A stretch of 64,000 bases of DNA from Bacteroidia bacterium (GCA_014376805.1 JACMQU010000110.1:259-64258), one strand, 5' to 3'; counted from the stretch's first letter, positions 18,830 to 53,815 are shown. The notes: generated from the sequence alone by a model not told the origin. Numbers and translations are program-made.

Positions 18830-18867
18830 ATGCATATTCTTCGATTTTTTTGTATATTGCAAGTAGT

Positions 18868-26789: not shown

Positions 26790-27362
26790 ATGGCTAAACA
26801 AAATAAAACTATTCAAATAAAAAATATGTGTTGCCGCCGGTGTATTCTAATGGTAACAGATATTTTAGAAAAACGCAGTTTACATGTACAATCTGTGAGG
26901 CTGGGTAAGGCCGTGTTTACCGGCAATATCGACTATAAACTACTAGATAATGATTTAAAGTTAATTGGCTTTGAACGCATTATTGATCCTGAAATTATTT
27001 TAACAGAAACTATCAGAAACACCTTGTTTGAATTTATTAATAATATAGAGGAGCATACCGAAAACAATTCTAATCTGATTAAATTAGTTGAACACAAAAC
27101 GAAAATTACATTCAGGCAGGCTAACCTTGTTTTTATAAAGCACAGAAATACCACTATTGAAAAATATTTTATTTTACTGAAAATTGAAAAAGTAAAAGCA
27201 CTTATTGAAGAGGGGCAACTAAATTTTAATGAAATTGCTGAAAAGTTGGAATATAAAGCATATCAGCACCTCGCTGCACAATTTAAAAAAAACACAAGTA
27301 AAACAATGAGTAGCTTTAAAAAATCTAATCATAAAAACAGGAAGCCTTTTGATGAAATTTAA
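26790..27362 (+). CDS. Regulator with HMA-like N-terminal domain and a divergent AraC-type HTH
   Basis: IQIKNMCCRRCILMV (an HMA-like beta1-loop with Cys) and C-terminal LNFNEIAEKLEYKAYQHLAAQFKK. Paralogue of 52713..53312. The ATG abuts the upstream stop. Confidence 0.6.
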   Translation: MAKQNKTIQIKNMCCRRCILMVTDILEKRSLHVQSVRLGKAVFTGNIDYKLLDNDLKLIGFERIIDPEIILTETIRNTLFEFINNIEEHTENNSNLIKLVEHKTKITFRQANLVFIKHRNTTIEKYFILLKIEKVKALIEEGQLNFNEIAEKLEYKAYQHLAAQFKKNTSKTMSSFKKSNHKNRKPFDEI

Positions 27363-31681: not shown

Positions 31682-31689
31682 TATCTTTG
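31682..31689 (+). promoter_or_regulatory. -7 box (TATCTTTG) for the czc operon
   Basis: Exact TAnnTTTG match ending 6 nt before ATG 31696, which implies a very short leader. Confidence 0.4.
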
Positions 31690-31695
31690 CCGCCA

Positions 31696-32019
31696 ATGAA
31701 AACATTGGCTATCATTTTCTCTATATACATAACGCTGCTTGCTGCTATGCCTTGCTGTATATTTGATAATTGTCCCGATGACCAGTCAGTTAATTCACAG
31801 TCGGATAAACTTAACCATGAAAGTGGTGATGAAGATGGTTGTGGCACTTGTTCACCATTTTTTAATTGTAGTACCTGTAATGTTTCATTTATAAATACCC
31901 AGGTAAACATCTTTAATTTTGTTAGTTTTATTATAAGCGATAAAATTCAATGCAATTATGTTTTTATAAGCACAGGAACTTGTATTACTTCCATCTGGCA
32001 ACCGCCTAAATTAGTTTGA
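31696..32019 (+). CDS. DUF6660-like small Cys-rich membrane protein
   Basis: MKTLAIIFSIYITLLAAMPCC.FDNC, CSPFFNCSTC and C-terminal WQPPKLV match my recollection of the DUF6660 pattern, which is commonly found upstream of czcA in Bacteroidota. Confidence 0.5.
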   Translation: MKTLAIIFSIYITLLAAMPCCIFDNCPDDQSVNSQSDKLNHESGDEDGCGTCSPFFNCSTCNVSFINTQVNIFNFVSFIISDKIQCNYVFISTGTCITSIWQPPKLV

Positions 32020-32097
32020 TCAGCTTAATTTTATTTGTCGGGTTATAATTCACCTGGCCCGTTTTTACTTTTTTTTATTAATAAAAATCAAACAATT

Positions 32098-37763: not shown

Positions 37764-39791
37764 ATGATTAACAACGATCCTAACCATATACATCAATATG
37801 ATGCAAATGGAAAAATGATCTGCTGCTCCCTTGAAGAGAAAGTTTATTTAAAAGCGAATGCAGATAATTTGATTCATTCAAACAACAGGCATGCGGATGA
37901 ATCTGATCATTTGCATGTTCATTCATCTGATGAAGATACCCGGAAAGTATATATCCCGGCAACAATCAGTTTCATCTTTTTAAGCGCGGGTTTATTATTT
38001 GATTATTTTATAAAACCGGTTTTTTTTCAGGCTTACTTTAGGATTGCCTGGTATGTATTTGCTTATTTACCGGTTGGAATTCCTGTAATGAAGGATGCCA
38101 TAAAATCTATTGCAGCAGGTGCCTTGTTCTCCGAATTTTTCTTGATGTCTATTGCTACCCTGGGTGCTTTTTTTATCGGTGAATATGCAGAAGGAGTAAC
38201 AGTTATGTTATTTTATGCTGTGGGTGAATTGTTTCAGACGGCTGCTGTTAACCGCGCTAAAAAAAGTATAAAAGCCTTGTTGGATATGCGTCCCGATACT
38301 GTTAATATTTTAAGAAACGGATCTATACAAACAGTTTCTCCTGCTCAGGTTCAAATTGGTGAAACCCTTCAAGTGATGCCCGGAGAAAAGGTAGCGCTTG
38401 ATGGCGAATTGATTTCTGCCTCTGCCTCTTTTAATACTGCAGCCCTCACTGGCGAAAGCAAACCGGATACAAAAAATAAAGGTGAAATGGTGCTGGCTGG
38501 AATGATAAACTTAAATTCTGTTTCAGATATTATAGTCACTACTTTATTTAAGGATAGCAAATTGTCGAAAATATTAGAAATGGTGCAGGAGGCAACTTCG
38601 CGTAAATCGCAAACTCAATTGTTTATTACAAAATTTGCCAGAATATATACACCCATTGTTGTGCTGTTGGCACTTTGTATTTGTTTACTACCCTATTTTT
38701 TTGTGTCTGATTATGTTTTCAGTAATTGGCTATACCGCTCCTTAGTATTCCTGGTTATATCTTGTCCTTGTGCCTTGGTAATTTCTATTCCATTAGGATA
38801 TTTTGGTGGAATTGGATTGGCATCCCGAAACGGAATTTTATTTAAAGGCTCTAATTACTTAGATATAATGACTAAAATTGATACTGTTGTTATGGATAAA
38901 ACAGGCACCCTTACCAAAGGAGTATTTAAGGTTCAAGACGCTGTTAGTGCTGGTATTGAGCAAAATGAATTACTTAAACTAACTGCTGCTTTAGAAAGCA
39001 AATCAACTCACCCGATCGCAAAGGCAATATCTCTGCACGTTGGTGATGCATTTAAAAATGTAAGTGTAAGTAATGTTGAAGAAATTTCTGGTTATGGCTT
39101 AAAAGGAACTATTGATGGTAAAGAAGTATTGGCCGGCAATTTAAAATTGTTTAAAAAATATAACATCGATTACAACAAAATAATTGAAAACATAACAGAA
39201 ACCATTGTAGTAGTTGCAGTGAACAACAAATATGCAGGTTATATTACTATTGCAGATGAAATAAAAGAAGATGCTTCTCAAACAATTAAAGACTTGCATA
39301 GTATTCATATTAAAACAGTGATATTATCTGGCGATAAACAAAGTGTAGTTGATAAAATTGCAAAAAAATTAGGTATTGATACTGCTTATGGCGATTTATT
39401 ACCTGAACATAAAGTTGAAAAAGTACAGGCCTTAAAAAATGAAAATAGAACCATTGCCTTTGTTGGAGATGGTGTTAATGATGCGCCTGTTGTTGCACTG
39501 GCAGATGCCGGAATTGCCATGGGTGGTTTAGGTAGTGATGCCACCATAGAAACGGCTGATATTGTTATTCAGAACGACCAGCCTTCAAAAATTGTAACAG
39601 CTATTAAAATTGGCATACTTACCCGAAAAATTGTCTGGCAAAATATTGCCCTGGCTCTCTCTGTTAAAGTTATGGTTTTGATATTAGGTGCAATTGGCAC
39701 TGCTACATTATGGGAAGCAGTTTTTGCAGATGTAGGGGTGGCTTTACTTGCTATTTTAAATGCGGTAAGAATACAACGTGTAAAATTTTAA
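37764..39791 (+). CDS. P1B-type heavy-metal ATPase, Zn/Cd/Pb (ZntA/CadA) subtype
   Basis: CPC (SCPCALVIS), DKTGTLT and GDGVNDAP. TM7 Lys (LALSVKVMVL) and TM8 ADVG (D-x-G) match the P1B-2 signature. The N-terminus is His/Cys-rich with no HMA fold. Confidence 0.9.
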   Translation: MINNDPNHIHQYDANGKMICCSLEEKVYLKANADNLIHSNNRHADESDHLHVHSSDEDTRKVYIPATISFIFLSAGLLFDYFIKPVFFQAYFRIAWYVFAYLPVGIPVMKDAIKSIAAGALFSEFFLMSIATLGAFFIGEYAEGVTVMLFYAVGELFQTAAVNRAKKSIKALLDMRPDTVNILRNGSIQTVSPAQVQIGETLQVMPGEKVALDGELISASASFNTAALTGESKPDTKNKGEMVLAGMINLNSVSDIIVTTLFKDSKLSKILEMVQEATSRKSQTQLFITKFARIYTPIVVLLALCICLLPYFFVSDYVFSNWLYRSLVFLVISCPCALVISIPLGYFGGIGLASRNGILFKGSNYLDIMTKIDTVVMDKTGTLTKGVFKVQDAVSAGIEQNELLKLTAALESKSTHPIAKAISLHVGDAFKNVSVSNVEEISGYGLKGTIDGKEVLAGNLKLFKKYNIDYNKIIENITETIVVVAVNNKYAGYITIADEIKEDASQTIKDLHSIHIKTVILSGDKQSVVDKIAKKLGIDTAYGDLLPEHKVEKVQALKNENRTIAFVGDGVNDAPVVALADAGIAMGGLGSDATIETADIVIQNDQPSKIVTAIKIGILTRKIVWQNIALALSVKVMVLILGAIGTATLWEAVFADVGVALLAILNAVRIQRVKF

Positions 39792-40180: not shown

Positions 40181-41377
40181 ATGTTTCCAATACGAACTTC
40201 TATAGTAGTTTTTTCAGCATTTATATTCATAAGTGCATGTATAAAACTGGAACCTTCTGCACCAGATAGCAATAATGTGTTAGATGGTCCCTTAGCTGAA
40301 CTTAATCACGAGCAAATGATTCAGCACATGCATGGAGATGCTGCATTTAATGATGCTATTTTTACATCTGAAAATGGTCTGGGCCCTGTATTTGTAGCAA
40401 ACACCTGTGCAAGTTGCCATGCAGGAGATGGAAAAGGCCACCAGTTTACCTCCTTAACGCGTTTTGGACAATCAGACAGCACAGGAAATTTATTTATTGG
40501 TAAAGGTGGGCCACAATTACAAAACAGAGCCATTCCGGGATTTCTCCCAGAACAACTTCCCTTTGGGGTACCTTTCACAAAATTAGTGGCTCCTGCTGTT
40601 ACGGGTTTAGGTTTCATTGATGCGGTAACGGATGCGGATATTATTGCCATGGCTGATCCAACAGATGCAGATGGAGACGGAATATCAGGTGTATTAAGTG
40701 TTGCTATTTTACCTTCATATGTAATTCCCCGAAACATGGCTATTCCACAAAATGGTTATTTCATTTGTAGGTTTGGCAAAAAAGCCGGTGCTTATGATTT
40801 GGTTTTACAAACGGCAAAAGCTTATAATCAGGATATGGGAATAATTTCGGGTTATGAGCCGGTTGATCCACATAGTAATTTGGCCGGAGATCCGGAAATA
40901 ACAGCACAAACTATTCAGGATAATGTATTTTATCAAAAGACTTTAAAAGCCCCACTTGCCCGAAATCAAAATAATTCTGATGTAATTTCAGGTAAGCAAA
41001 TTTTCATAAATATCGGTTGTGTAACTTGTCATAAAAAAGAGTTAAAAACAGGCCATTCAACAATAAGTTCATTATCCGAAAAATTATTCTTTCCTTACAC
41101 AGATTTACTGCTGCATGACATGGGTTCAGATCTGGATGATGGTTATACAGAAGGTTCAGCCAAATCAAGTGAATGGAGAACACCTGCACTATGGGGACTG
41201 GGATTAAGCAAAAACTCCCAGGGTGGAAATTATTTTTTAATGCATGATGGCAGGGCAACTACTATTGAACAAGCTGTTTTATTACATGGCGGAGAGGGGA
41301 GCAAAAGCCGCTCACAATACAATGCTTTAACCGAAACTGAAAGGAAAAAACTCCTTATATTTTTAGAAAACTTATAA
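40181..41377 (+). CDS. Di-haem cytochrome c oxidoreductase/peroxidase-like lipoprotein (DUF1111 family)
   Basis: Lipoprotein signal (FISAC) and two CxxCH haem motifs (CASCHAGDGKG; CVTCHKKEL). The family-typical end is TPALWGLG...LMHDGRATTIEQAVLLHGGEG. Confidence 0.8.
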   Translation: MFPIRTSIVVFSAFIFISACIKLEPSAPDSNNVLDGPLAELNHEQMIQHMHGDAAFNDAIFTSENGLGPVFVANTCASCHAGDGKGHQFTSLTRFGQSDSTGNLFIGKGGPQLQNRAIPGFLPEQLPFGVPFTKLVAPAVTGLGFIDAVTDADIIAMADPTDADGDGISGVLSVAILPSYVIPRNMAIPQNGYFICRFGKKAGAYDLVLQTAKAYNQDMGIISGYEPVDPHSNLAGDPEITAQTIQDNVFYQKTLKAPLARNQNNSDVISGKQIFINIGCVTCHKKELKTGHSTISSLSEKLFFPYTDLLLHDMGSDLDDGYTEGSAKSSEWRTPALWGLGLSKNSQGGNYFLMHDGRATTIEQAVLLHGGEGSKSRSQYNALTETERKKLLIFLENL

Positions 41378-41820
41378 TGAACCGGAGCACATTTATAAAG
41401 CAAGGGTGTATTTCATGCCTGGGGATAAGTCTCGGAATGTCACTCTTTAATTCCTGTAAATCCATACATTATGTAAATGGTAAGATGTCAGAAAATAACC
41501 TGAGTATCCCGATAACCGAATTTTCTGAACCTAATAAAAAAGGTAACGATACTTACAGAAAATATATTTTAGTTAAACATGAATCTCTTCAATATCCAAT
41601 TTGTGTTTATCGCATTTCCGGCAATGATTATAAAGCATTATGGCTACGTTGTTCGCATCAGGGTGCAGAATTGCAAGTGTCGGGTGATACTTTAGTTTGT
41701 CTGGCTCATGGATCAGAATTTGATAATTCAGGTAAAGTAACCAATGGACCTGCTGATAAAGACCTGCGAACTTTTATAACGTATCTTAAAAACGAACATT
41801 TAAACATAGTTTTAAAATGA
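41377..41820 (+). CDS. Rieske [2Fe-2S] domain protein
   Basis: CxH (LRCSHQG) and CxxH (CLAHGSEFD) Rieske ligand boxes at the usual spacing. TAATG overlap with the upstream gene. Confidence 0.8.
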   Translation: MNRSTFIKQGCISCLGISLGMSLFNSCKSIHYVNGKMSENNLSIPITEFSEPNKKGNDTYRKYILVKHESLQYPICVYRISGNDYKALWLRCSHQGAELQVSGDTLVCLAHGSEFDNSGKVTNGPADKDLRTFITYLKNEHLNIVLK

Positions 41821-43049
41821 AAAAATATTTATTTCTTATCTTATTGCAACTGGTTATACTCACCTCATTTGCGCAGGTTGATACTTCTTTATTCAAAACG
41901 ATCGCAAAAGATACTTCCTATAAAAACAACCTGATGAATATGGATGCTGTCTATAGCAGACCTTTTTTGAATTATTCAAAATCTCCGGTTTCAATTGGTG
42001 GTTATCTCGAAGCAAATTATCAGCACTTAGGTACAAACGGAATTAGTGAAGGACATCAGTTTCAGATGCGCAGAATGACCCTATTTATTGCATCATCCAT
42101 AAAAAACAGAATTAAGTTTTTGTCTGAAATAGAATTTGAAGATGGAACTAAAGAAATAAACATTGAGTTTGCCGCTGTTGATTTTACTTTCAATCCTATG
42201 ATAAATATAAGAGGCGGTATCCTGATGAATCCTATCGGGGCATTTAACCAGAATCATGATGGGCCTAAGTGGGAGTTTATAGACAGGCCTATATCAGCAA
42301 CACAAATGCTTCCCGCTACCTGGAGTAATGTAGGTTTCGGATTATATGGTAAAAAATATTCAGGTAACTGGATTTATGCTTATGAAGTTTATTTAACCAA
42401 TGGATTTGATGATCGGATCATAGCAAATAATGCAAACCGAACCAACCTGGCAGCAACTAAAGCAAATAAAAACCGTTTTGAAGAGAGCCCCAACGGAGAA
42501 CCGCTCTACACCGGAAAGTTTGCCATACGCAATAGAAAAATCGGGGAATTAGGTCTTTCTTATATGGGAGGCATCTATAACAAATTTCAGATAGATGGGT
42601 TCAACATTGATAAAAAGCGAAGTGTACATACATTTGCCATCGACTTTAATACAACATTACCGGTACTAAACACGAAGTTAATTGCAGAATGGGCTATGGT
42701 GGTAGTAGATGTTCCACCAACCTATTCACAGCAATTTGGAGATAAACAATATGGTGGCTTTTTAGATGTTGTTCAACCGGTTTTTAAAAAGCAAATGCAG
42801 GGTTTTCATAATGCTGTATTAAACCTTGCCTGCCGGTTTGAATTTGTGGATTGGAATGTGGCTACATTTAGAGAAACCGGAGGGAATATTGCTGATCATA
42901 TTTGGGCGGTTGTTCCTGCTGTTTCATTCAGACCTTCGCAACAAACTGTAATACGAATTAACTATCGCTATCAGCAACAAACGGATTTGTTAGGTAATAT
43001 ACCATTGCGAACCGGTGGATTTCAGATTGGATTCTCTACTTATTTTTAA
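41817..43049 (+). CDS. Outer-membrane porin-like beta-barrel protein
   Basis: ATGA overlap with the Rieske gene. Signal peptide, GGYLEANYQHL...FQMRRMTLFI...SEIEFEDG...RGGILMNPIGAFNQNHD pattern reminiscent of phosphate-selective-porin-like barrels, ending GFSTYF. Confidence 0.5.
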   Translation: MKKYLFLILLQLVILTSFAQVDTSLFKTIAKDTSYKNNLMNMDAVYSRPFLNYSKSPVSIGGYLEANYQHLGTNGISEGHQFQMRRMTLFIASSIKNRIKFLSEIEFEDGTKEINIEFAAVDFTFNPMINIRGGILMNPIGAFNQNHDGPKWEFIDRPISATQMLPATWSNVGFGLYGKKYSGNWIYAYEVYLTNGFDDRIIANNANRTNLAATKANKNRFEESPNGEPLYTGKFAIRNRKIGELGLSYMGGIYNKFQIDGFNIDKKRSVHTFAIDFNTTLPVLNTKLIAEWAMVVVDVPPTYSQQFGDKQYGGFLDVVQPVFKKQMQGFHNAVLNLACRFEFVDWNVATFRETGGNIADHIWAVVPAVSFRPSQQTVIRINYRYQQQTDLLGNIPLRTGGFQIGFSTYF

Positions 43050-43185: not shown

Positions 43186-43578
43186 TTGAAAAAAATTGTA
43201 GCCATATTATTACTTTTTAGCTTTTTTCTGGCAAATTCAGGAATGGCGGTTTCAATGCACTGGTGTGGCGGTAAAATAACACATATCAGTTTTTTTTCCA
43301 ACGATTCACACCTTTGTTCCTGCAAAAAAAAGGAAAAGGACATGAAACCCGGCTGTTGTAAAGACAAAACAGCTTTCTTTAAATTAAAAAGTGAAATAAA
43401 TTCTCCAAATAATCACTCCTTTAAAGCATCAGTTTTTCAGATTATTTATATTCATTTTAACCAAAAAGAAACAGCGTATCTTTCTCTATATAAATTTACG
43501 AATACATTCTTCTATTATCCTCCCCCATTTAAACCTAAAGTTCCTACTTATATTACCAACGGAGTTTTTATCATTTAA
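43186..43578 (+). CDS. HYC_CC_PP-like small Cys-rich membrane protein, second copy
   Basis: TTG start, TM helix, MHWCGGK, GCCKDK and YPPPFKPK, ending NGVFII. The 5' end is conserved at the nucleotide level with 18853-18895. Confidence 0.55.
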   Translation: MKKIVAILLLFSFFLANSGMAVSMHWCGGKITHISFFSNDSHLCSCKKKEKDMKPGCCKDKTAFFKLKSEINSPNNHSFKASVFQIIYIHFNQKETAYLSLYKFTNTFFYYPPPFKPKVPTYITNGVFII

Positions 43579-43709
43579 TATTTCTGAAGTAATCTTAACC
43601 GTCATATCTGAACGGTTATTGAAGTTTTGGCATATCTGTGAGTCAGATTTGCGGCCAATTCAATTATACTTTTATAAAACTCAACAAAAATTATTTAAAA
43701 ATTTAAAAT

Positions 43710-44501
43710 ATGAAAAAATCAATTTTACTTTCACTTGTTTTGACGTTCGTTATTACGATTTCCAAAGCTCAGACTACTGCCATGAATTTCAATAAGAAAG
43801 ATTGCAGTGGCACCATGCACAATCTTTTTACGGATTTAGATGCAGGTAATGCAGTTATCCTTCATTTTTTTATGCCTAATTGCGGAAGTTGTCCTCCTCC
43901 GGCTCAAAAAATTCAGGCAATGGCAAATAATATTTTGAAATCACATCCCGGAAAAATAAAAGCTTATGCTATACCGTTCAACAATTCCACTACTTGTTCT
44001 TATGCATCAACTTGGGTTTCTTCTAATGGGCTTTCTTTATATACAGCATTAGATAGTGGTTCTGCTCAAGTAGCTCATTATGGCGGTTTTGGTATGCCTA
44101 CAGTAGTTGTTTTAGGTGGTATAGATCATAAAGTGTTGTTTTCAACGCTGAGTTTTTCAACCAGCGATACTACCACTATGAGGAATTCAATATTAAATAT
44201 GCTGAATGGTACTGCCGGAATTGATACTAAAATTATCAATGATATTCCTGCAATTAGTGTATTTCCAAATCCGGCAATAGATAACATGCAGATTGAACTT
44301 AATTTAAGCCAGACATCAAATATTAAAATTGAAGTTATAAACATGCTTGGAGAAATTGTAAGTGCTGTTTATAATGGTAAAGCCGGTGAAGGTGTTTTAA
44401 GAAAAGAGGTTTCAACAACTGATTTTAGTAATGGGATTTATTTTGTAAGGGTAATTTCAAATAATAATTTACAGAATTACAAATTCACAGTTACGCATTA
44501 A
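43710..44501 (+). CDS. Thioredoxin-fold CxxC protein with T9SS C-terminal sorting domain, second copy
   Basis: DCSGTMHNLF..NAVILHFFMPNCGSC, FGMPTVVVLGG, CTD (VFPNPAIDNMQIEL...NGIYFVRVISN...YKFTVTH). Confidence 0.6.
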   Translation: MKKSILLSLVLTFVITISKAQTTAMNFNKKDCSGTMHNLFTDLDAGNAVILHFFMPNCGSCPPPAQKIQAMANNILKSHPGKIKAYAIPFNNSTTCSYASTWVSSNGLSLYTALDSGSAQVAHYGGFGMPTVVVLGGIDHKVLFSTLSFSTSDTTTMRNSILNMLNGTAGIDTKIINDIPAISVFPNPAIDNMQIELNLSQTSNIKIEVINMLGEIVSAVYNGKAGEGVLRKEVSTTDFSNGIYFVRVISNNNLQNYKFTVTH

Positions 44502-45205
44502 TGTTTAAGGGTATCCAGGTAAAATTAAAAACAGGACTGGCAGTGGTTTTAACCACTGCCACTGTCTTCACTTTTGCTCAAAGCTATAATATTACGCCCA
44601 ACGATACTTTCATGGATCTGACGCCATTTAATAAACTCAGCCATTTTACCATACAACAAAATAACCTTACTAACGGAAAACTCCTTTTTAACTGGCAGCA
44701 GTTAGTTTTAAATATTCCATCCGGCTGGACAGCTAATTTATGCGACAATGGGCATTGCTATGCCGACTTTCCAGTAAAAGGGAAAATGGATACTGTTTTT
44801 AAAAGTGAATATGGAATGATGTCTCTAGGGATTGATCCCGGTATGGTATCCGGAACCGCACTTATCCGCTATGCAATCTGGGAGCAAAGTACACCTGAAA
44901 ATATGGATACCTTAACCTGGATTATTTCTTCAAACAGTGCAACCGGATTTACCGAAACAGAGCCTGATAAATCGTTGCTGATTTTTGTTGATGTAAGCGG
45001 AGATAACATTCATTTGTTAACATCATTGAATAAAGGTTTTTATTGCTCAATTTCTGATATTTCAGGTAAACAGGTTTATTCTGAAAATTTCATTTTTTCT
45101 ACAGCAAATATTTCTTCAGAAAATTTCCCAAATGGTTTTTATAATATTCTGATTATGGATTCCAATAAGAATATCAAAACTAAAAAAATAATGATTCAAC
45201 ACTAA
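44501..45205 (+). CDS. Small secreted CxNGxC protein with a T9SS-CTD-like end
   Basis: TAATG overlap. Signal peptide, FNWQQL...GWTANLCDNGHCY and the tail GKQVYSENF...FPNGFYNILIMD...KKIMIQH. Paralogue of 51682..52380. Confidence 0.5.
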   Translation: MFKGIQVKLKTGLAVVLTTATVFTFAQSYNITPNDTFMDLTPFNKLSHFTIQQNNLTNGKLLFNWQQLVLNIPSGWTANLCDNGHCYADFPVKGKMDTVFKSEYGMMSLGIDPGMVSGTALIRYAIWEQSTPENMDTLTWIISSNSATGFTETEPDKSLLIFVDVSGDNIHLLTSLNKGFYCSISDISGKQVYSENFIFSTANISSENFPNGFYNILIMDSNKNIKTKKIMIQH

Positions 45206-45211
45206 TTTACC

Positions 45212-46942
45212 ATGAGATTAACTGCCTTCTTCATTTTAGTCTATCAATCCCTGGTTTCACAGGCACAAAATCCTCTTTATATCCCGCCCGCTTTAACGGG
45301 TCCGGTATTTAATTTAAATATTCAGAGTGGGAGTAAAATGTTTTATGGTACAAATGCAACCCCTACTTATGGCGTTAATGGATCGTGGATGGCACCTACC
45401 CTGATAGTTAACAAAGGAGACAGTATTACCCTGCATGTTAAAAACGGACTGTCTGTAAAAACAACGATGCACTGGCATGGCTTGCATGTTGCTGCAAAAA
45501 ATGACGGAGGTCCACATCAGATAATATTACCCTTAGGAACCTGGAGTCCCTCATTTAAGATAAGAAATAATGCAGCTACCTTCTGGTATCACCCTCATGG
45601 TGCCGGACAAACTGATCCACAGGTATCAAAGGGCCTGGCAGGTTTTATAATTGTTAGAGACAGCACTGAGGCCTCCCTTAATTTGCCACGTACTTATGGA
45701 TTAGATGATATACCTTTAAATGTGCAGAGCAAGGCATTTGATGAATTAAAACAAATAGCTATTTCAACGGATATGGACACGGCACTTTTTGTAAACGGTA
45801 CTTTGCATCCATTGCTTAATGTACCACAACAAGTGGTTCGTTTTCGCTTATTAAATGGCAGCAGTTTACGTTCATATAATCTGGGTTTTTCTAATGGGCA
45901 GATCTTTTATCAGATTGCAACTGACGGAGGTTTACTGGATACGCCTGTTACACTTTCCCGTTTACGCCTTTCTCCCGGAGAAAGAGCAGAGATCCTTGTT
46001 AATTTTTCAGGTTTAATAGGGCAAACAATTAATTTAAAGAGCTATTCATCTGAGTTGGCAAAGGGTATTTATGGTGCCGACAGTATTGGAAAAGGCATAG
46101 ATATTATTGATGCGTATAATGATAATTTTCTGAATGGTTCTGATTTTAACCTGCTACAGATAAATATTGGTGCAACATCAGTTAATCCGGTTATAACAGT
46201 GCCCCTTAGCTTAGTACCCTTTAAACACTTTAATATTACTTCAGCTACACGTTACCGTAAAATTGAATTTGATACCATTCGTTTGCTGCCTGCTGATGTA
46301 CCAAATCTGGCAGATGGACCTTTTGGCATGAACCATAAAAGTTTTGATATGGAAACTATTAATGAGATAGTTCATTTGAATACAACGGAAATCTGGACAC
46401 TTGTAAACCATACGCTGGTGGCTCACCCTTTTCACATACACGATGTACAATTTGAAGTAATTGAAAAAAACGGAAAGCCAATATCTATAAGCGATAAGGG
46501 CTGGAAAGATGTTGTTTTGATAATGCCTAACGACAGTGTAAAATTTATCAGCAGGTTTGAAACTTTTTCTGACCCAATGGTGCCTTATATGTATCATTGT
46601 CATTTGCTACACCATGAAGATGATGGTATGATGGCAAGTTTTTTAGTAATTGATACTTCTGCTTCAACCGGAATTATAAATGTAGAGCAAGTGCACTATC
46701 TGCTATATCCTAATCCGGCAATCAATAACCTTACATTTCAATTTAAAGATGCCATTCATTTTGCTGAGGTAAACATAATTAATGTATTAGGGGAAATTAT
46801 TCTAAAGCAAACTATATCCAATTCCAATTCACTGATACTTGATGTTTCAACAATTAAAGAGGGTATGTATTTTATTCAGGTTATAGAAAGAGGAAATACC
46901 GAAAATAATCGTTTCTCCATACAAAAATTTATTAAACAATAA
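45212..46942 (+). CDS. Multicopper oxidase (CueO/CopA-like) with T9SS C-terminal sorting domain
   Basis: All four copper motifs are present: HWHGLH, WYHPH, HPFHIHD and HCHLLHHEDDGMM. The C-terminal CTD reads LYPNPAINNLTFQF...GMYFIQVIE...QKFIKQ. Confidence 0.9.
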   Translation: MRLTAFFILVYQSLVSQAQNPLYIPPALTGPVFNLNIQSGSKMFYGTNATPTYGVNGSWMAPTLIVNKGDSITLHVKNGLSVKTTMHWHGLHVAAKNDGGPHQIILPLGTWSPSFKIRNNAATFWYHPHGAGQTDPQVSKGLAGFIIVRDSTEASLNLPRTYGLDDIPLNVQSKAFDELKQIAISTDMDTALFVNGTLHPLLNVPQQVVRFRLLNGSSLRSYNLGFSNGQIFYQIATDGGLLDTPVTLSRLRLSPGERAEILVNFSGLIGQTINLKSYSSELAKGIYGADSIGKGIDIIDAYNDNFLNGSDFNLLQINIGATSVNPVITVPLSLVPFKHFNITSATRYRKIEFDTIRLLPADVPNLADGPFGMNHKSFDMETINEIVHLNTTEIWTLVNHTLVAHPFHIHDVQFEVIEKNGKPISISDKGWKDVVLIMPNDSVKFISRFETFSDPMVPYMYHCHLLHHEDDGMMASFLVIDTSASTGIINVEQVHYLLYPNPAINNLTFQFKDAIHFAEVNIINVLGEIILKQTISNSNSLILDVSTIKEGMYFIQVIERGNTENNRFSIQKFIKQ

Positions 46943-46951
46943 AACAACGAC

Positions 46952-48412
46952 ATGAAAAAAGCAACTCTAATCATAGCCGGTTTACTTTTTAATTTTATTG
47001 TCATCAATGCACAAACAAACCTTGTTTGGAAGATGGGGATGAATATTTCTACGGGTGCTTATGGGAATATGCATCCACGAATAGTGCTTGATGGTAAAGG
47101 CAATCCGTTGGTGATTTGGGGCAGGATGTCTGATGCCTCAGTTATGTTTTCGCGATGGACAGGTACTGCTTTTACAACGCCTGTAAAATTAAATCCTTCT
47201 TGGCTTTCCATTGCAACAGCCACCTGGATGGGGCCTGATATTGCATCCAAAGGAGATACCGTTTATGTAGTTGTAAAACGCATACCGGAAGCTTCTGATA
47301 CCAACCATATTTATCTGATACGTTCGTTTAATGGAGGCATTTCATTCTTTGCTCCGGTTCGTATCGATTTAATCGCCGACAGTATTTCTCGTTTTCCTGC
47401 TGTTACAGTAGATGCCACAGGAAATCCTATGGTGGCATTTATGAAATTTAATTCATCATTTCTCGATTCGAGGTGGGTAGTAACTAAATCTATAGATTAT
47501 GGAATCTCCTTTTCTCCGGATATAAAAGCAAGTGGCTGGAGTGGTGCCAAAGCAGAAGTATGTGATTGCTGCCCTGGCGCAATTATCTCTGATGGGAATG
47601 TAACATCAATGCTTTACCGGGATAACCTGAGTAATAAACGGGACATCTGGACAGGTATTTCAACAAATAACAATGTATCATTCAGTGATGGTTTTGCAAC
47701 AGATAATAGCAACTGGATGTTAATGTCATGCCCTTCCAGCGGGCCTGATGGAGTTATTATTGGTGATACCTTGTACACTGTATTTTTAAGTGGAGCAGGA
47801 GGTAAGAACAAAAACTATATCAGCAAATCATCTGTAAGTGAAAACAAATTAAAATCAATATCTCCACTAACAGGAAGTATAACCGGACTTACCCAGCAGA
47901 ATTTTCCGCGAATTGCAAGTGATGGCATTGCTGCGGCAATTGTATGGAAACAAACTGTTAATGGAAATGATCAATTGCCGCTTCTGTTCACAAATAATAT
48001 AGCTAAAGGTTTTACTGTTTATGATACTGTTGATTTAAACGATATTACAAATGCCGATGTGGCTGTAAATAAGGGAAATATATTTGTTGTATGGGAAGAT
48101 GATAATTCAGGAACTGTAAAGTTTCGACAAGGAACATACAAATATGTTACTACCGGAATACCGGCACAGGTAACCGATCCCGTTACCTCAATAAATGTTT
48201 TTCCTAACCCGGTAAATGATGTATTGAATATAGTATCACCATCGGGTGAAAATTATGTGTTGAACATTTATAATTCTCTGGGTGAAAAAATGTTTACTAT
48301 GGAATCATCCATAAATCTCCTGGTGCCTACTTCCACATTTCCTTCAGGCATTTATTTCATTGAATGGCGGACGGACAAACTTATTCACAATCAAAAAATT
48401 ATTAAACCGTGA
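46952..48412 (+). CDS. Asp-box (BNR/sialidase-like) beta-propeller protein with T9SS CTD
   Basis: Asp-box-like repeats (RSFNGGISF, KSIDYGISF). CTD VFPNPVNDVLNIV...SGIYFIEWR...QKIIKP. Confidence 0.55.
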   Translation: MKKATLIIAGLLFNFIVINAQTNLVWKMGMNISTGAYGNMHPRIVLDGKGNPLVIWGRMSDASVMFSRWTGTAFTTPVKLNPSWLSIATATWMGPDIASKGDTVYVVVKRIPEASDTNHIYLIRSFNGGISFFAPVRIDLIADSISRFPAVTVDATGNPMVAFMKFNSSFLDSRWVVTKSIDYGISFSPDIKASGWSGAKAEVCDCCPGAIISDGNVTSMLYRDNLSNKRDIWTGISTNNNVSFSDGFATDNSNWMLMSCPSSGPDGVIIGDTLYTVFLSGAGGKNKNYISKSSVSENKLKSISPLTGSITGLTQQNFPRIASDGIAAAIVWKQTVNGNDQLPLLFTNNIAKGFTVYDTVDLNDITNADVAVNKGNIFVVWEDDNSGTVKFRQGTYKYVTTGIPAQVTDPVTSINVFPNPVNDVLNIVSPSGENYVLNIYNSLGEKMFTMESSINLLVPTSTFPSGIYFIEWRTDKLIHNQKIIKP

Positions 48413-48477
48413 AAAGTATTTTTTTATCTTTTGGTTTACTACTCTTCATGCGCTTTATACAAATAAATCCGGTTAAA

Positions 48478-50157
48478 ATGAAAAAGCTAATTTACTTAAT
48501 AATATTATCCTTGTTCACTGTAGTGATTTCCAAAGCACAAAATCCATTAATCATTCCGGATACGCTAACTGGTGTTACTATAAATCTTGTACTTAAAGAT
48601 AGTTCAAAACAATTTTATACTTCTCGTAATACCAATACCATTGGATATAATGGTGGATATTTGGGTCCTACCATTATTTTAAATAAAGGGCAATATGTAA
48701 CAATGAATGTTCACAACCAGCTTGCAGATACAACCACAACATACTGGCATGGATTGCATGTTGCTTCTCAAAATGATGGAAGTCCTCACAATGCTATTAT
48801 GCCCGGTAATACCTGGTCGCCGGGTTTTACTGTGCTCGATAATGCAGCAACTTATTGGTATCATCCGCATCTGCATATGAAAACTTTTGAACAGGTTTTA
48901 AAAGGAGCAGCAGGGCTTATCATTATTCGCGACAGTATTGAATCTGCTTTACCTTTACCCCGCAAATACGGAGTTGATGATGTTCCTCTGATTTTCCAGT
49001 TTAAAACAATTAATCCGCTTACTAAACAAATTATGTTATCAGATTCGATGGATAATGTAGTTATGACAAATGGGGTGGTAAATCCATACTTAAATAGTCC
49101 TGCTCAAGTGGTACGCTACAGAATATTAAATGCATCCAGTGCGCGGGTATTCCGTTTCGGTTTTAACGACAATCGTATATTTTATCAGATTGCTTCTGAT
49201 GATGGTTTGTTAAATGCTCCTGTGCCTCTAACACGTCTTACCTTAGGAATAGGAGAAAGAGCTGAGATCCTGGTTAATTTAACGGATGACTTTGGTAAGA
49301 CTTTGTTTATAAAAACATTTGGGAATGAATTACCCTCAGGATTTACCGGAGGCCCTGGGGGAATGATGGGTGGTGTTACTGGTCCCCTGGATAATATAAA
49401 TTTTAATATTCTGCAGATAAATGTTACATCAGCTACAACTAATGCTGTTACTGCCATTCCATCCGTATTAACTTCAAACAATATTTGGTTAAAAACGGGT
49501 GTACCGATAAGGAATTTTACACTTCAGGCAGTACCCGTGATGAGCACTAACTTTTTTATCAATTCTACGCCCTTTAAGGAGAACGTAAACAATTTTTCGG
49601 TTCAAAAAAATAACGTAGAGATCTGGAAAATTCAGAACATGACATCTATAGCGCACCCGTTTCATATTCATGGAAACCATTTTTACATAATTTCAAAAAG
49701 TGGAAGTACTGTTCCGATTAATGAACAAGGTAGAAAAGATGTAGTTTTAATAGCACCTATGCAAACAGTTGAACTTATAACAAAATATGAAACATTTAAT
49801 GATTCCATGATGCCTTACATGTATCACTGTCATATTTTAAAGCACGAAGATATGGGAATGATGGGACAGTTTATTGTTAATAATTCAGTAACAGGAATCA
49901 ATGACATGGCTACTAAAACTCCTGAAATATATGTTTATCCCAACCCAACAAATGACTTCTTTTTTATTCAGAATAAAAACACGAACACGGTAATTCAACA
50001 GGTGAGCATAAGTGATGTTTTAGGCAGAAATTTATTACATCTTACTAATATAGACTTTTCTAAAATTGATATTTCAAACTTACCAACAGGGCAATATTTT
50101 ATTCAAATACTAACCAATAAGACAATTACAACCCTAAAAATTTTAAAACAAAATTGA
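48478..50157 (+). CDS. Second multicopper oxidase with T9SS CTD; first copper motif reads YWHGLH
   Basis: WYHPH, HPFHIHG and HCHILKHEDMGMM are intact. Motif 1 has Tyr (TAC 48742-48744) where MCO1 and CueO have His. CTD VYPNPTNDFFFIQ...GQYFIQILT...LKILKQN. Start at ATG 48478. Confidence 0.85.
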   Translation: MKKLIYLIILSLFTVVISKAQNPLIIPDTLTGVTINLVLKDSSKQFYTSRNTNTIGYNGGYLGPTIILNKGQYVTMNVHNQLADTTTTYWHGLHVASQNDGSPHNAIMPGNTWSPGFTVLDNAATYWYHPHLHMKTFEQVLKGAAGLIIIRDSIESALPLPRKYGVDDVPLIFQFKTINPLTKQIMLSDSMDNVVMTNGVVNPYLNSPAQVVRYRILNASSARVFRFGFNDNRIFYQIASDDGLLNAPVPLTRLTLGIGERAEILVNLTDDFGKTLFIKTFGNELPSGFTGGPGGMMGGVTGPLDNINFNILQINVTSATTNAVTAIPSVLTSNNIWLKTGVPIRNFTLQAVPVMSTNFFINSTPFKENVNNFSVQKNNVEIWKIQNMTSIAHPFHIHGNHFYIISKSGSTVPINEQGRKDVVLIAPMQTVELITKYETFNDSMMPYMYHCHILKHEDMGMMGQFIVNNSVTGINDMATKTPEIYVYPNPTNDFFFIQNKNTNTVIQQVSISDVLGRNLLHLTNIDFSKIDISNLPTGQYFIQILTNKTITTLKILKQN

Positions 50158-50246
50158 AGGAAAATTAAAATATTTTCCATAAAAGAAGTAAGAACTTATA
50201 TCCATGCTATCTATCATAAAATTTACATCATTAAAATAATTGAAGT

Positions 50247-51623
50247 ATGAAAAAATTGTTTTTCGGCTGTTTAATTCTCCTGGAATTATGCGTTAAATCT
50301 GCTTATTCTCAGCAAACTATTGATTCTTATGTACGAGACTCCATCAACAATGTATTTACTGTGGTGGCCAGTTCATCTAATGCGCTAAACTCACCGGTTG
50401 ATCTTGATTTTTATCCTAATCAAACGACAAGACCTTTTGAACTTTGGATCTTAAATCAGGGTACTTCAGCTACTGGTGGTTCAACGGTAATTGTTTCTAA
50501 TGCCAATCAAAGTACACGTACCTCAACATATGTAAAAGATGGTAATGCCTGGCATTTTATGTCGATGGCAAGTGCGATAGCTTTTGGAGATAGTCTTTGG
50601 GCAACAAGTGCTGATGTATTAGATGCCAATCATTCTTCAGGCCGTTATTCAGGTCCAACATTATGGCCTGGCAACCTTGATGTTTATGGTGTTGTTGGTA
50701 ATCCAAGTAATGCAACCTTTAATGGCAGCCATTTAGATATGATCCATCAAAGTCCATACAGCAAGGGTATAGCTTTTGAAAAAAATCTGGTTTACTGGGT
50801 CTTGGATGGTTATGAAAGAAATATAAAAAGATATGATTATATTAAAACCCATGAACCTGGTGGTGAAGATCATAGTGCAGGAAGTGTTCAGGTATATCCG
50901 GAATTTACTTTTAACAAGCATGCCACCTTACCAAGTCATATTGTAATTGATGCTAACAAAAAGTATTTATACGGATGTGATCCTGTTGGTAAAAGAGTAT
51001 TTAGAATTGATATCACTACAGGAATTGTAAATGGCCCGGGAACTAAAGTTAACAATGAACCTTTAGCAAGTTATAATACCTGCTCGGGATTGGTTTTTAA
51101 AGATGTTGTTACTACCGGTTTAATAAGTCCTGTTGGAATTGATATTTATGGTGACAGGTTAATTGTAACTGATAATGCTACAGATGAAATAATAATTTAT
51201 GACATTTATAATTTCAATGAAATAGGACGGATCAAACTCAGATATGCAGTAAATCCAGATCCTATGGGCATTAAGGTAGGCCCTGATGGTAAAATTTATT
51301 TTGCTGATAAATTAAATAAAAAAGTATATCAGATTGATAATTCTAAAGTTTTCGCACTAGATGCTAAGGAAGTATTGAGTTCAAAAGAAATTGCAATGGT
51401 TTATCCTAATCCTGCAACCAATGAAATTTTTGTTCAATTAAACAATTCACCCGATCAATCTGCATCCTATACAGTTATAAATGTAATGGGTGAAGTTGTA
51501 TGGCAACAAAATATCACTGGCGTATCTACCCGAATAGATATATCAACTTTTAAAAGTGGTATATATTTTTTAAAGCTAAATTCAACTAATAAATCTTTCA
51601 TCCAAAAAATAATAAAACAATAA
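50247..51623 (+). CDS. NHL/YncE-like beta-propeller protein with T9SS CTD
   Basis: Repeats of the type PVGIDIYGDRLIVTDNATDEIIIYD and PMGIKVGPDGKIYFADKLNKKVYQID. CTD VYPNPATNEIFVQL...SGIYFLKLNS...QKIIKQ. Confidence 0.5.
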   Translation: MKKLFFGCLILLELCVKSAYSQQTIDSYVRDSINNVFTVVASSSNALNSPVDLDFYPNQTTRPFELWILNQGTSATGGSTVIVSNANQSTRTSTYVKDGNAWHFMSMASAIAFGDSLWATSADVLDANHSSGRYSGPTLWPGNLDVYGVVGNPSNATFNGSHLDMIHQSPYSKGIAFEKNLVYWVLDGYERNIKRYDYIKTHEPGGEDHSAGSVQVYPEFTFNKHATLPSHIVIDANKKYLYGCDPVGKRVFRIDITTGIVNGPGTKVNNEPLASYNTCSGLVFKDVVTTGLISPVGIDIYGDRLIVTDNATDEIIIYDIYNFNEIGRIKLRYAVNPDPMGIKVGPDGKIYFADKLNKKVYQIDNSKVFALDAKEVLSSKEIAMVYPNPATNEIFVQLNNSPDQSASYTVINVMGEVVWQQNITGVSTRIDISTFKSGIYFLKLNSTNKSFIQKIIKQ

Positions 51624-51681
51624 AAAAGGCTTTAGATTTTGGCTCATTATGATATAAAGAGTTGCTAAAGCTTAAAAAATT

Positions 51682-52380
51682 ATGAAATACTTAATTCTAT
51701 TAATTGTTGTATTGTGTACTGTCACTAAATCATACTCGCAGATAAGTTTTCCAAAAGGAAACACCGTTAATCTGAATACAAATGTTGATTTTTTGTATGA
51801 AGAAACACGGATATTTTTTCACACTGGAAATTATAAAGCTAATGATTACAATTGGGAAAAGTTAAGTGATTCACTTGACAGCAGATGGTTGATTGGCTCC
51901 TGTTTTAACGGAGATTGCAGAAATGATTTGGTTCAAAGCGGTTCTTTTATTAAAGATTATGGCATAAACGATACTACCTGTTTTATAGCTTTTCATATAG
52001 AAACGCATGGTTTTGATGGGAACTCAATTATAAAGTATCATATTTATAACAAAAATAACACGGCGGATTCTTCCAATATGATTTTTAATGTACAATATAG
52101 AAATACTACCGGGCTTAATGATGAAACCCGATTGCAAACAAAGCAAATTGTAATTGTAAATCCTGTTAAAAAGGACCTTATAATATTAAATAAAATTTCT
52201 AAAATAGAAAATGTTGAAATTCATAATCTGCCCGGAGAATTAATATATACAGGTGATCCGATAAGGGATAATAATGAAAAAATAATCTTCCATTTGCCTG
52301 ATGGGATAGAGGGGATGTATTTGTTAAATTTAACTGTTAATGGTGTTCAAAAATGTTGGAAAATTATCATCAGTCCTTAA
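51682..52380 (+). CDS. Small secreted CxNGxC protein, second copy, with a CTD-like end
   Basis: YNWEKL...RWLIGSCFNGDCR aligns with FNWQQL...GWTANLCDNGHCY of 44501..45205. Tail GELIYTGDP...EGMYLLNLTVNG. Confidence 0.5.
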   Translation: MKYLILLIVVLCTVTKSYSQISFPKGNTVNLNTNVDFLYEETRIFFHTGNYKANDYNWEKLSDSLDSRWLIGSCFNGDCRNDLVQSGSFIKDYGINDTTCFIAFHIETHGFDGNSIIKYHIYNKNNTADSSNMIFNVQYRNTTGLNDETRLQTKQIVIVNPVKKDLIILNKISKIENVEIHNLPGELIYTGDPIRDNNEKIIFHLPDGIEGMYLLNLTVNGVQKCWKIIISP

Positions 52381-52432
52381 GTATAATTTAAACAATAAAG
52401 GATAAAGTAATCAAAATAAAATTAGTAAAAAA

Positions 52433-52648
52433 ATGAAAAATTTAATCATTACAATTGCAGCAATAGCCATAATAGCTGCCTGCAACAATTCAACTTCTTC
52501 TCATCAGAAAGCCGGTACTGAAATGAAATCAGACAGCATTAAAAATGCAGCGGTATATCAATGTCCGATGGATTGTGAGAAGGGTAAGACTTATGAAAAA
52601 GCTGGTAAGTGTGTGGTATGTGGAATGGAATTGGAAGAAATAAAATAA
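52433..52648 (+). CDS. Lipoprotein consisting of a single heavy-metal-binding (YxCPM-type, four-Cys) domain
   Basis: Lipobox IIAAC, then YQCPMDCEKGKTYEKAGKCVVCGMELEE. The same motif class sits at the N-termini of the two CusB-like adaptors. Confidence 0.6.
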   Translation: MKNLIITIAAIAIIAACNNSTSSHQKAGTEMKSDSIKNAAVYQCPMDCEKGKTYEKAGKCVVCGMELEEIK

Positions 52649-52712
52649 CAACCGTAGCAATTTTATATTTTCTAAAATAGTAGAAGTAGGAAAGATTTAT
52701 TGTTAAAAAATT

Positions 52713-53312
52713 TTGCGATGCTTATTCAAAAATTACATATATATTGATATTTTGAAACTCTACATTAAGAATATGGTTTGTAACCGCTGCATTATGATGG
52801 TTAAGCAGGTGTTAAATAAACTAAGTTTGCCTTATAGCCTTGTACAATTAGGAGATATAGATTTAACAACGGATGTATCGGTAGATCAACTTAAAAACTT
52901 AAATTCAGAACTAAAATTACTGGGTTTTTTAATTATTGATGACCGTAAGACACGCATCATAGAAAAGGTGAAAAATATAATTATAAAAATGGTGCACACG
53001 GATGTTGATCTTCCAAAACAAAATCTTTCTGATTATTTGTCTGATCAATTGCACTTCGAATATAATTACCTGAGCAGTATATTTTCTGAAGTAGAAAATA
53101 TCACCATTGAAAAATTTACGATCAACCAGAAAATTGAAAAAGTTAAAGAATTGCTGGTATATGATGAGTTAGATTTAAATGAAATTGCAGCTCAAACCGG
53201 CTATAGTAGTGCAGCACATCTGAGTAATCAGTTTAAGAAAACTACGGGACTTACGCCTTCGCATTTTAAAAAAATAAAGGAAAATAAACGCAAATCACTG
53301 GATGCTGTTTAA
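52713..53312 (+). CDS. AraC-family transcriptional regulator with HMA-like N-terminal domain
   Basis: YIKNMVCNRCIMMVKQVL (HMA-like) plus a canonical AraC HTH (LNEIAAQTGYSSAAHLSNQFKKTTGLTPSHFKK). The start is uncertain; TTG 52752 would give an N-terminus like the paralogue 26790..27362. Confidence 0.75.
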   Translation: MRCLFKNYIYIDILKLYIKNMVCNRCIMMVKQVLNKLSLPYSLVQLGDIDLTTDVSVDQLKNLNSELKLLGFLIIDDRKTRIIEKVKNIIIKMVHTDVDLPKQNLSDYLSDQLHFEYNYLSSIFSEVENITIEKFTINQKIEKVKELLVYDELDLNEIAAQTGYSSAAHLSNQFKKTTGLTPSHFKKIKENKRKSLDAV

Positions 53313-53453: not shown

Positions 53454-53714
53454 ATGAAAAAAACAGAAAAAAAAACCCTTAAGAAAAATCTTTTTACCGC
53501 TATTAAGAAAGTGCTGAGTTCGAATAAAGCAGAGCTAACAGAAAAAACTGAAAAAGCAGTTAAAAAATCGATTAAAAAAATTGTTAAAAAAACGAATATC
53601 ATAGATAACAATGATGCTGTAAAAGATAAGAAAGTAAGTGCATCAAATTCTTCAAAAAATAAATCAACAGCGGTATCTGCACCTATAATAGATAAAAAGA
53701 AAAAAGGCAAATAA
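53454..53714 (+). CDS. Lysine-rich small basic protein (histone-H1-like composition)
   Basis: 86 aa, visibly very Lys-rich, followed by a strong terminator. The antisense ORF 53417..53710 is the hydrophobic mirror image and is considered spurious. Confidence 0.45.
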   Translation: MKKTEKKTLKKNLFTAIKKVLSSNKAELTEKTEKAVKKSIKKIVKKTNIIDNNDAVKDKKVSASNSSKNKSTAVSAPIIDKKKKGK

Positions 53715-53784: not shown

Positions 53785-53815
53785 GGCGGTTCAAAAGGAT
53801 TGAACCGCCTTTTTT
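53785..53815 (+). terminator. Intrinsic terminator
   Basis: GGCGGTTCAA (53785-53794) pairs with TTGAACCGCC (53800-53809), with a 5-nt loop, followed by TTTTTT. Confidence 0.65.

Follow-up and report, generated by a model that had tools for sequence, protein, structure and literature searches.

We describe a cluster of ten genes at positions 43186-53312 of a 64,000-nucleotide stretch of DNA, hereafter the window, from a Bacteroidia bacterium (GCA_014376805.1, JACMQU010000110.1:259-64258). Seven consecutive genes of this cluster, two of them for multicopper oxidases (MCOs) resembling CueO, encode proteins that end in a C-terminal sorting domain (CTD) of the type IX secretion system (T9SS), and seven CTD genes in a row, in an order that recurs in other genomes, are far beyond chance. 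The reading that we favour, with confidence evenly balanced, is that of a metal-induced module which would export a CueO-like oxidase past the outer membrane, along with metal-handling partners rich in Cys and His. Consistent with this reading are the CTDs on seven products and their retention family by family, the gene order shared with other genomes, the metal-related neighbours, the HMA domain of the regulator and the intact copper ligands of the first oxidase. The invariant Cys and His clusters of the accessory proteins, a related locus with MerC and a cupredoxin-like CTD protein, and the lack of a strong terminator before 53785 also point this way. The operon is probably metal-responsive, with a response to copper being likely.

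All ten open reading frames (ORFs) lie co-directionally on the plus strand. In order they encode a small Cys-rich membrane or secreted protein of the HYC_CC_PP family (43186-43578), a thioredoxin-fold protein (Trx-CTD, 43710-44501), a protein with a CxNGxC motif (CxNGxC1, 44501-45205), the first oxidase (MCO1, 45212-46942), a six-bladed propeller of the BNR/sialidase fold (Prop1, 486 aa, 46952-48412), the second oxidase (MCO2, 48478-50157), an NHL-repeat propeller (Prop2, 50247-51623), a second CxNGxC protein (CxNGxC2, 51682-52380), an HMBD lipoprotein (52433-52648) and a regulator that joins an HMA-like domain to an AraC-type helix-turn-helix (HTH; HMA-AraC, 52752-53312). The stop codon of gene 2 (TAA) and the start codon of gene 3 (ATG) share one base in the TAATG at 44499-44503, and the remaining intergenic gaps across the cluster do not exceed 131 nt. 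The ORF calls agree here with an earlier note on this DNA, made from the sequence alone, which had listed ten co-directional genes with small gaps and this overlap. Its family assignments likewise hold, those of HYC_CC_PP, the two MCOs, HMBD and the AraC HTH by model scores and those of the thioredoxin fold, the Asp-box/BNR propeller and the NHL propeller by profile or fold matches.

The same note had read T9SS CTDs of 70-80 aa in eight genes between 43710 and 52380. With TIGR04183 (cut-off 23 bits) every product encoded in that interval scores above the cut-off as a type-A CTD protein, at 26.9-57.8 bits, and they number seven, which is also the count of items 2 to 8 in the note's own list. 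The individual scores include 43.5 bits for Trx-CTD, 26.9 for CxNGxC1, 39.2 for MCO1, 40.8 for Prop1, 57.8 for Prop2 and 28.3 for CxNGxC2, and no match to the type-B CTD model was reported among the cluster proteins. Pfam PF18962 exceeds its gathering score (27) in five of the seven cargo proteins and is sub-threshold in both CxNGxC proteins (25.1 and 20.4 bits), a family in which 28 of 28 members match PF18962 at E up to 1 (best 9.8e-15). The cargo CTDs match the solved CTDs 8glk_D, 8glj_D and 5hfs. PF18962 is present in all of the top 120 homologue clusters of MCO1, and the CTD is kept in nearly all top homologues of Prop1. The seven cargo N-termini, as read by eye rather than by a predictor, have a basic start and a hydrophobic core followed by A-Q or S-Q, and by the same reading none contains a twin arginine. 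Judged by model scores, these seven products are predicted type-A cargo of the T9SS, and their CTDs suggest a surface location; the beta-sandwich sorting domain matching TIGR04183 is what they have in common with type-A cargo such as the gingipains and the secreted enzymes of F. johnsoniae. No T9SS machinery genes (gldK-N/porK-N, sprA, porU/V) lie within the 64 kb window, and one relative (L002) has gldN and gldM 9 kb from the module.

A scan with a Prop1 profile, over one genome per species, returned relatives in 207 stretches, and the gene-order counts that follow rest on 80 fetched loci. The host lineages are mostly Chitinophagales, Sphingobacteriales, Saprospiraceae, Flavobacteriales and Kapabacteria- or Ignavibacteria-like. 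Thirteen loci, all from species-level genomes, share the arrangement Trx, CxNGxC, MCO1-type oxidase, Prop1, often with HYC_CC_PP before it and the HMBD lipoprotein after it and sometimes with HMA-AraC too, and in relatives as well the module genes abut or overlap. Shorter variants are common, for instance Trx, MCO and Prop1, or CxNGxC and Prop1 alone. Of 60 loci, 19 have an MCO gene and 13 a CxNGxC gene directly upstream of Prop1, and an HMBD gene comes directly downstream of it in 14 of 74; a HYC_CC_PP homologue, usually heading the module, lies within about 10 kb of Prop1 in 23 of the 80. Of the Prop1 loci of at least 15 kb (n=50), a recognizable metal family is present in 37, an MCO in 27 and an accessory CTD family in 33. 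The module is nearly always found among copper or heavy-metal genes, the recurrent neighbours being P1B ATPases, split CusA-like pumps of the resistance-nodulation-division (RND) type with CusB and an outer-membrane efflux protein (OEP), HMBD, DUF3347, HMA-MauE and HMA-AraC.

In one relative the string at L086:7376-20566 runs DUF8199, Trx, CxNGxC, MerC, MCO, a long Prop2, Prop1, a cupredoxin-like CTD protein, HMBD, AraC, HMA-MauE and a P1B ATPase; the cupredoxin-like CTD protein is a possible electron-transfer partner. The second half of our cluster is rare elsewhere: seven loci have Prop2, two have CxNGxC2, and orthologues of MCO2 are confined to L027 and L029. The earlier note had proposed a search for conserved MCO-propeller-MCO-propeller synteny, and here the outcome is mixed: the order of the first half recurs in relatives, and the full order was seen in no other locus among those fetched. 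We regard HYC, Trx, CxNGxC, MCO, the BNR propeller and HMBD as the conserved core, and propose this as the ancestral unit; MCO2, the NHL propeller and CxNGxC2 are an accessory second unit in the source genome, a rare add-on, whose oxidase may be impaired.

MCO1 is a CueO-like three-domain MCO with a Sec-type signal (Cu-oxidase_3 99.8 bits, Cu-oxidase_2 83.5 bits), and MCO2, its CueO-like paralogue at 41% identity, has a short GGMMGG loop. The start of MCO2 is probably the ATG at 48478, as called on an independent assembly of the same sequence, and not the GTG at 48409. CueO is the best solved and curated relative of both (PDB, NCBIfam), and in MCO1 and 16 relatives all ligands of the copper motifs HxH, HxH, HxxHxH and HCHxxxHxxxxM are intact. 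Three cupredoxin domains, the four copper motifs of MCO1 and a setting among copper and heavy-metal export genes are shared with MCOs of the CueO, CutO and PcoA type. The N-termini of the two oxidases, MRLTAFFILVYQSLVSQAQ and MKKLIYLIILSLFTVVISKAQ, are Sec-like and do not qualify as signals for twin-arginine translocation (Tat). The MCO-CTD fusion is common in metagenomes, where database labels for it are automatic.

The cluster closes with a regulator that has an HMA-like CxxC domain, in support of the metal-sensing regulator supposed in the earlier note. Its start is probably the TTG at 52752, giving MKLYIKNMVCNRC as in the orthologues, which begin MKLYIKNMVC; the HMA-like part carries MVCNRC, and HTH_18 scores 59 bits. 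The CxxC is invariant in 10 sequences, and the first 60 aa match HMA domains, those of ATP7B, CopA and CopZ, at E 4.7e-5 to 1e-2.

Prop1 is unusually well conserved, with homologues in 846 clusters, the best 120 of them at 56-69% identity. Its sole four cysteines, C204, C206, C207 and C260 (the last in a C-P pair), are 100% conserved in 75 homologues, the first three within an invariant C-D-C-C-P at 47561-47575. The AlphaFold2 (AF2) model, with a predicted local distance difference test score (pLDDT) of 78, gives Foldseek matches to sialidases at E 2e-10 to 1e-8 with template-modelling (TM) scores of 0.45-0.6 and about 10% identity, and the sequence contains the Asp-box-like motifs SFNGGISF and SIDYGISF. 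Invariant Arg residues lie within blade-repeat motifs, and identity at this level allows no residue-level match to the sialidase catalytic site. We rejected a sialidase function for Prop1 on the grounds that the match is to the fold only, at about 10% identity, and that the genomic context is metal-related. We likewise rejected membership of CopG: the invariant C-D-C-C is there, but the fold is that of a propeller, DUF411 is not matched and the likeness is by motif only. The N-terminal domains of Prop1 and Prop2 belong to no family in Pfam or NCBIfam, and the two proteins are homologous through the CTD only.

In Prop2, profile positions 279-360 match the NHL blades of Pizza designs, PknD and TRIM proteins at E 1e-17 to 2e-6, with Pizza and PknD at 1e-17 to 5e-9, and the N-terminal blades are too divergent for an NHL match. 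Among its invariant His and Met residues are H103, H162, H167, H202, H209 and H231, and GSHLDMIHQSP at 50724-50756 (in the family, G-S-H-L-D-M-x-H-Q-S-P) is a stretch with such residues. Two homologues, at L014:7127-8245 and L015:7601-8758, have no CTD and carry a lipoprotein-type signal (..NAC), so the same propeller can be lipid-anchored instead of T9SS-sorted.

Trx-CTD has a thioredoxin fold of the TlpA/DsbE/ResA type, with CGSC at 43881-43892, a conserved G-M-P-T in the cis-Pro loop and, in the family alignment, invariant C32, C58, C61 and C96. Its profile matches the DsbE structure 3gl3 (E 3.8e-5) and also 2m72 and 2l5o, over a range of 4e-5 to 5e-4, and no Pfam thioredoxin family is matched at E<=0.01. 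It resembles the Scs-type, TlpA and ResA thioredoxin-fold proteins in its CxxC, its cis-Pro and its copper-related locus, and differs from them in its two extra invariant cysteines, its predicted T9SS export and the lack of a DsbD/ScsB-type supplier of reductant in the module. The CxNGxC proteins, with CDNGHC at 44741-44758 in the first and CFNGDC at 51901-51918 in the second, are distant paralogues (BLASTP E 1e-9, 21% identity) that share the pattern W...W...C-x-N-x-x-C and a Gly/Tyr motif. A profile of this family finds about 229 clusters at E<=1e-30 among 1.84 billion representative proteins in clusters at 50% identity, and among the clusters listed nearly all members have 210-260 aa and the same architecture. 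The N-terminal domain has no sequence relative in Pfam, NCBIfam or the PDB, where a profile search gave CTD matches only. The AF2 model of CxNGxC1 (pLDDT 81) is a beta-sandwich whose fold neighbours are generic and Ig-like only; pilus chaperones and RbmA are among these, as two-domain Ig-like fold matches, and we did not interpret them.

At the two ends of the cargo genes stand two small proteins. HYC_CC_PP scores 52.4 bits with NF047658 (cut-off 28) and has the motifs HxCGGK, CxC, CCKDK and PPP. The HMBD lipoprotein, of 71 aa with lipobox AAC, has the motifs YQCPM and CVVCGM and scores 37.6 bits with PF19335 (cut-off 23.6). Just 3' of the HYC_CC_PP stop codon is a plus-strand stem-loop, AACCGTCATATCTGAACGGTT, at 43597-43617. 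HYC genes nearly always have such a stem-loop within about 20 nt downstream, with a sequence that varies between loci; instances follow 19245 and 32019 in the window and are found in L010, L020, L022, L029, L017 and others. The folding z-scores after HYC genes average -1.87 (n=23), as compared to -0.67 for 120 co-directional gaps taken as controls (Mann-Whitney p = 4.6e-5), a difference that hints at attenuation or processing after the short HYC_CC_PP gene and ahead of the cargo genes. There is no strong plus-strand terminator between 43186 and 53312, the terminator-like sites in that interval being short and inside coding sequence; the first convincing one past the cluster, and the strongest in the region, is a hairpin with a T-run at 53785-53809. 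A sigma-70 promoter scan stayed at background, with 67 sites against 56.9 expected, and is unsuited to Bacteroidota, so it was not used.

Taken as a working system, these parts would act as follows. The cytoplasmic HMA-AraC regulator would bind Cu(I) at its CxxC and turn the unit on. HYC_CC_PP would be made first, parted from the downstream genes by the stem-loop, a feature of the sequence to which we ascribe this role. As family knowledge would predict, the seven cargo proteins would pass through Sec, fold in the periplasm and leave by the T9SS for the surface or the medium, the CTD being lost or exchanged on the way. Outside the cell an MCO would oxidize Cu(I), another reduced metal or a phenolic ligand with O2. 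The Trx-fold CxxC protein, the CxNGxC beta-sandwich, the BNR propeller with its C-x-C-C and fourth Cys, and the His-rich NHL propeller would bind metal ions and pass them on, presumably as helpers like periplasmic proteins of the CopG, ScsC or CusF type and not as catalytic reductases. The domain identities, export signals, conserved order and metal-related neighbourhood that underlie this scheme are established here, and from them we infer the inducing metal, the substrate of the oxidase, the metal binding by the partners and the surface location. More tentatively, and with a confidence that falls well short of even, we speculate that the core is an undescribed extracellular copper-handling system of environmental Bacteroidota, consisting of a T9SS-exported oxidase with three new protein families (CxNGxC, BNR and His-rich NHL), in which the C-x-C-C and fourth Cys of Prop1 would form a copper-thiolate site functionally like that of CopG. 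On this view a defence hitherto known from the periplasm alone would shift to the far side of the outer membrane.

Several observations weigh against a module for exporting a copper-handling oxidase. All 80 returned loci are from metagenome-assembled genomes (MAGs), with no cultured isolate among them, and near Prop1 a metal gene is missing from 13 of the 50 long loci. The P1B ATPase in the window is of Zn/Cd type. Extracellular thiol proteins have no obvious source of electrons; the redox-active role outside the cell that the earlier note gave to the CxxC protein is doubtful in that no supply of reductant is evident there. The benefit of oxidizing Cu(I) beyond the outer membrane in oxic water is itself questionable. 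The oxidases raise further difficulties. CueO-type enzymes have a Tat signal, a Met-rich insert, a D-M-M-L stretch and a periplasmic location, in contrast to the Sec signal and CTD here, which predict a place beyond the outer membrane. Both MCOs fall below the cut-off (525 bits) of the NCBIfam CueO equivalog, MCO1 at 348.3 and MCO2 at 357.1, and both lack the Met-rich insert, across which the CueO alignments break. The D-M-M-L-H that precedes the first copper His in CueO, of which we take the D-M-M-L stretch to hold labile-copper ligands (Asp/Met), is T-L-V-A-H in MCO1. MCO2 in addition lacks one type-2 copper His, its first motif being YWHG instead of HWHG (TAC at 48742-48744 in place of the CAC of MCO1), whereas that His is kept in MCO1 and in all 15 other aligned relatives, the MCO2 orthologues of L027 and L029 included; the Tyr may mean that MCO2 is decaying, that it is a functional variant, or that the assembly is wrong at this point. 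With the insert missing, D-M-M-L replaced and the scores below the cut-off, cuprous oxidase activity is not implied by the sequence, which supports a CueO-like scaffold and not that activity. The copper oxidation envisaged in the earlier note is accordingly not established for either enzyme.

These same features invite an alternative that we think unlikely, namely that the MCO is secreted to act on something other than copper, as a laccase, ferroxidase or Mn(II) oxidase whose substrates outside the cell would be phenolics, Fe(II) or Mn(II). The metal-island setting would then stem from the copper need of the enzyme and from expression tied to copper supply, and the propellers and beta-sandwiches would either serve to bind substrate or mineral or be accessory subunits comparable to the small partners in Mn-oxidizing MCO complexes. 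MCO1 aligns in one piece only with 2yxv, a CueO variant from which the Met-rich region has been deleted, and the absence of D-M-M-L accords with such a substrate; the annotations that JGI gives to relatives are bilirubin oxidase or blue copper oxidase, T9SS cargo typically consists of extracellular degradative enzymes, and TonB-dependent receptors flank the island. The neighbourhood, however, is dominated by export and resistance genes and not by genes for catabolism or uptake, the regulator has a copper-type HMA domain, and there are no carbohydrate- or lignin-related genes in the module.

Alternatively, and in our view rather improbably, the accessory proteins might be a biogenesis set, that is, periplasmic or surface chaperones that would load four coppers into the Sec-exported MCO before or after T9SS export and form its disulfides, in parallel to CutO of Rhodobacter capsulatus with its CutF and CopG; what the oxidase itself does for the cell is left aside in this proposal. 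The MCOs have Sec and not Tat signals, so copper must be acquired outside the cytoplasm. The R. capsulatus cutF-cutO-cutG operon has a small Sec-exported protein with Cys and proline motifs first, then a regulatory intergenic structure, the oxidase and a C-x-C-C protein (PMC7558416), and our cluster repeats this pattern with its Cys-rich first gene with a proline motif, a stem-loop before the oxidase and a C-x-C-C protein after it. The cutF-cutO-cutG operon with CopG is, as an analogy, the closest functional parallel we can offer (PMC7558416). The likeness is one of gene pattern only, with no homology shown: Prop1 is a BNR propeller of 486 aa where CopG is a thioredoxin-like DUF411 protein, HYC_CC_PP resembles CutF by motif description only, and here seven partners carry T9SS CTDs. 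Such chaperones, moreover, need no export themselves. Prop1 pairs with CxNGxC, with no MCO directly upstream, in the 13 of 60 loci mentioned above, and some 23 of the 50 long loci lack an MCO within 10 kb; these MCO-free loci mean that the accessory proteins are not strictly oxidase-dependent. That there is no system at all, and that unrelated T9SS cargo genes came together by chance in a mobile metal island, is very improbable: the second half is not kept as a unit and gene content around Prop1 varies, but 13 species-level genomes share one core order and others have variants of it, the genes overlap or abut, and they co-occur strongly with metal genes.

Returning to the favoured module, an exporter of a CueO-like oxidase with metal-handling partners, its constituents have been known separately in the case of the oxidase family and the secretion tag, and it is the combination, the conserved partner set and three uncharacterized families that appear to be undescribed. 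In the full-text literature we found no T9SS-linked MCO, laccase or copper-resistance cluster and nothing relevant on HYC_CC_PP, and a search on HMA-AraC regulators gave nothing useful. Nor did the papers searched link any T9SS cargo set to metal homeostasis or contain an operon with seven cargo genes in a row around an oxidase, and no publication on such a cluster turned up, in line with the statement of the earlier note that it knew of no described system of this composition. Copper tolerance in Gram-negative bacteria is viewed as running from cytoplasm to periplasm, by a P1B ATPase, the Cus pump and a periplasmic CueO or PcoA. If our reading is correct, a widely distributed module that exports an oxidase and its partners past the outer membrane would extend copper tolerance to a third compartment. 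The T9SS would gain a role besides polymer degradation, motility and virulence, and three uncharacterized families in hundreds of environmental genomes would have their first functional context. The main limit is that all carriers recovered so far are uncultured, so experiments are confined to heterologous hosts; the partner families, being small and conserved and having many candidate metal ligands, are suited to biochemistry and structure work.

The cluster forms the end of a metal island of about 35 kb, from 18850 to 53312, which includes two Cus/Czc-like RND modules and a TonB-dependent receptor. Further members are a secreted HMA/CopZ/MerP-like protein (19410-19754) and the P1B ATPase (37764-39791), which has the motifs CPC, N-x7-K and D-x-G, passes the Cd/Zn subfamily model and fails the Cu model. 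The earlier note had stated that the window contains neither a Cu-type P1B ATPase nor CopZ, of which the first part stands; a Zn/Cd P1B ATPase and the secreted HMA/CopZ/MerP-like protein are nevertheless present. Its suggestion that the cluster may be the main copper detoxification route was based on the 64 kb window and is unsupported. The missing Cu-type ATPase does not make the cluster the main copper route, as the modules of relatives adjoin Cus-like RND pumps and further P1B ATPases that are more distantly related, of which two have an HMA domain by Pfam. HMA-MauE and DUF3347, which are frequent in the related loci, do not occur in the window.

HYC_CC_PP/DUF6660 genes occur three times in the window (18850-19245, 31687-32019 and 43186-43578), each at the head of a separate metal operon: the secreted HMA protein with the first RND pump, the second RND pump, and the T9SS oxidase cluster. 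Their position hints at a shared role as leader, sensor or chaperone. The CusA-like pump of the first module is split into an N-terminal part of 424 aa (19866-21140) and a C-terminal part of 638 aa (21140-23056). The split recurs in L020, L026, L027, L029 and L041, and is more fragmented in L040; we therefore regard it as a conserved arrangement and not a frameshift. At 32035-36471, one ORF of 1478 aa contains a whole RND pump fused to an OEP domain, the two being linked by a segment that resembles a signal peptide. No counterpart of this fusion was seen among related loci, and it may be real or the product of a lost stop codon.

A second HMA-AraC regulator lies at 26790-27362, followed, up to 29304, by a paralogue of Trx-CTD (36% identity to the protein of the cluster) and a 349-aa protein of no known family. 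This last pair adjoins Prop1 in L046 and L075, and in L007 it is 4 kb off on the opposite strand. Past the regulator of the cluster, a Lys-rich ORF of 86 aa with no family match (53454-53714) stands before the hairpin at 53785-53809. Directly upstream of the cluster, 40181-43049 encodes a di-haem oxidoreductase (DHOR), a Rieske protein and a 410-aa protein of no known family. The Rieske protein and the 410-aa protein stand directly before Prop1 in L074, and in L002 the module is preceded by MbnP and a MauG-like di-haem peroxidase.

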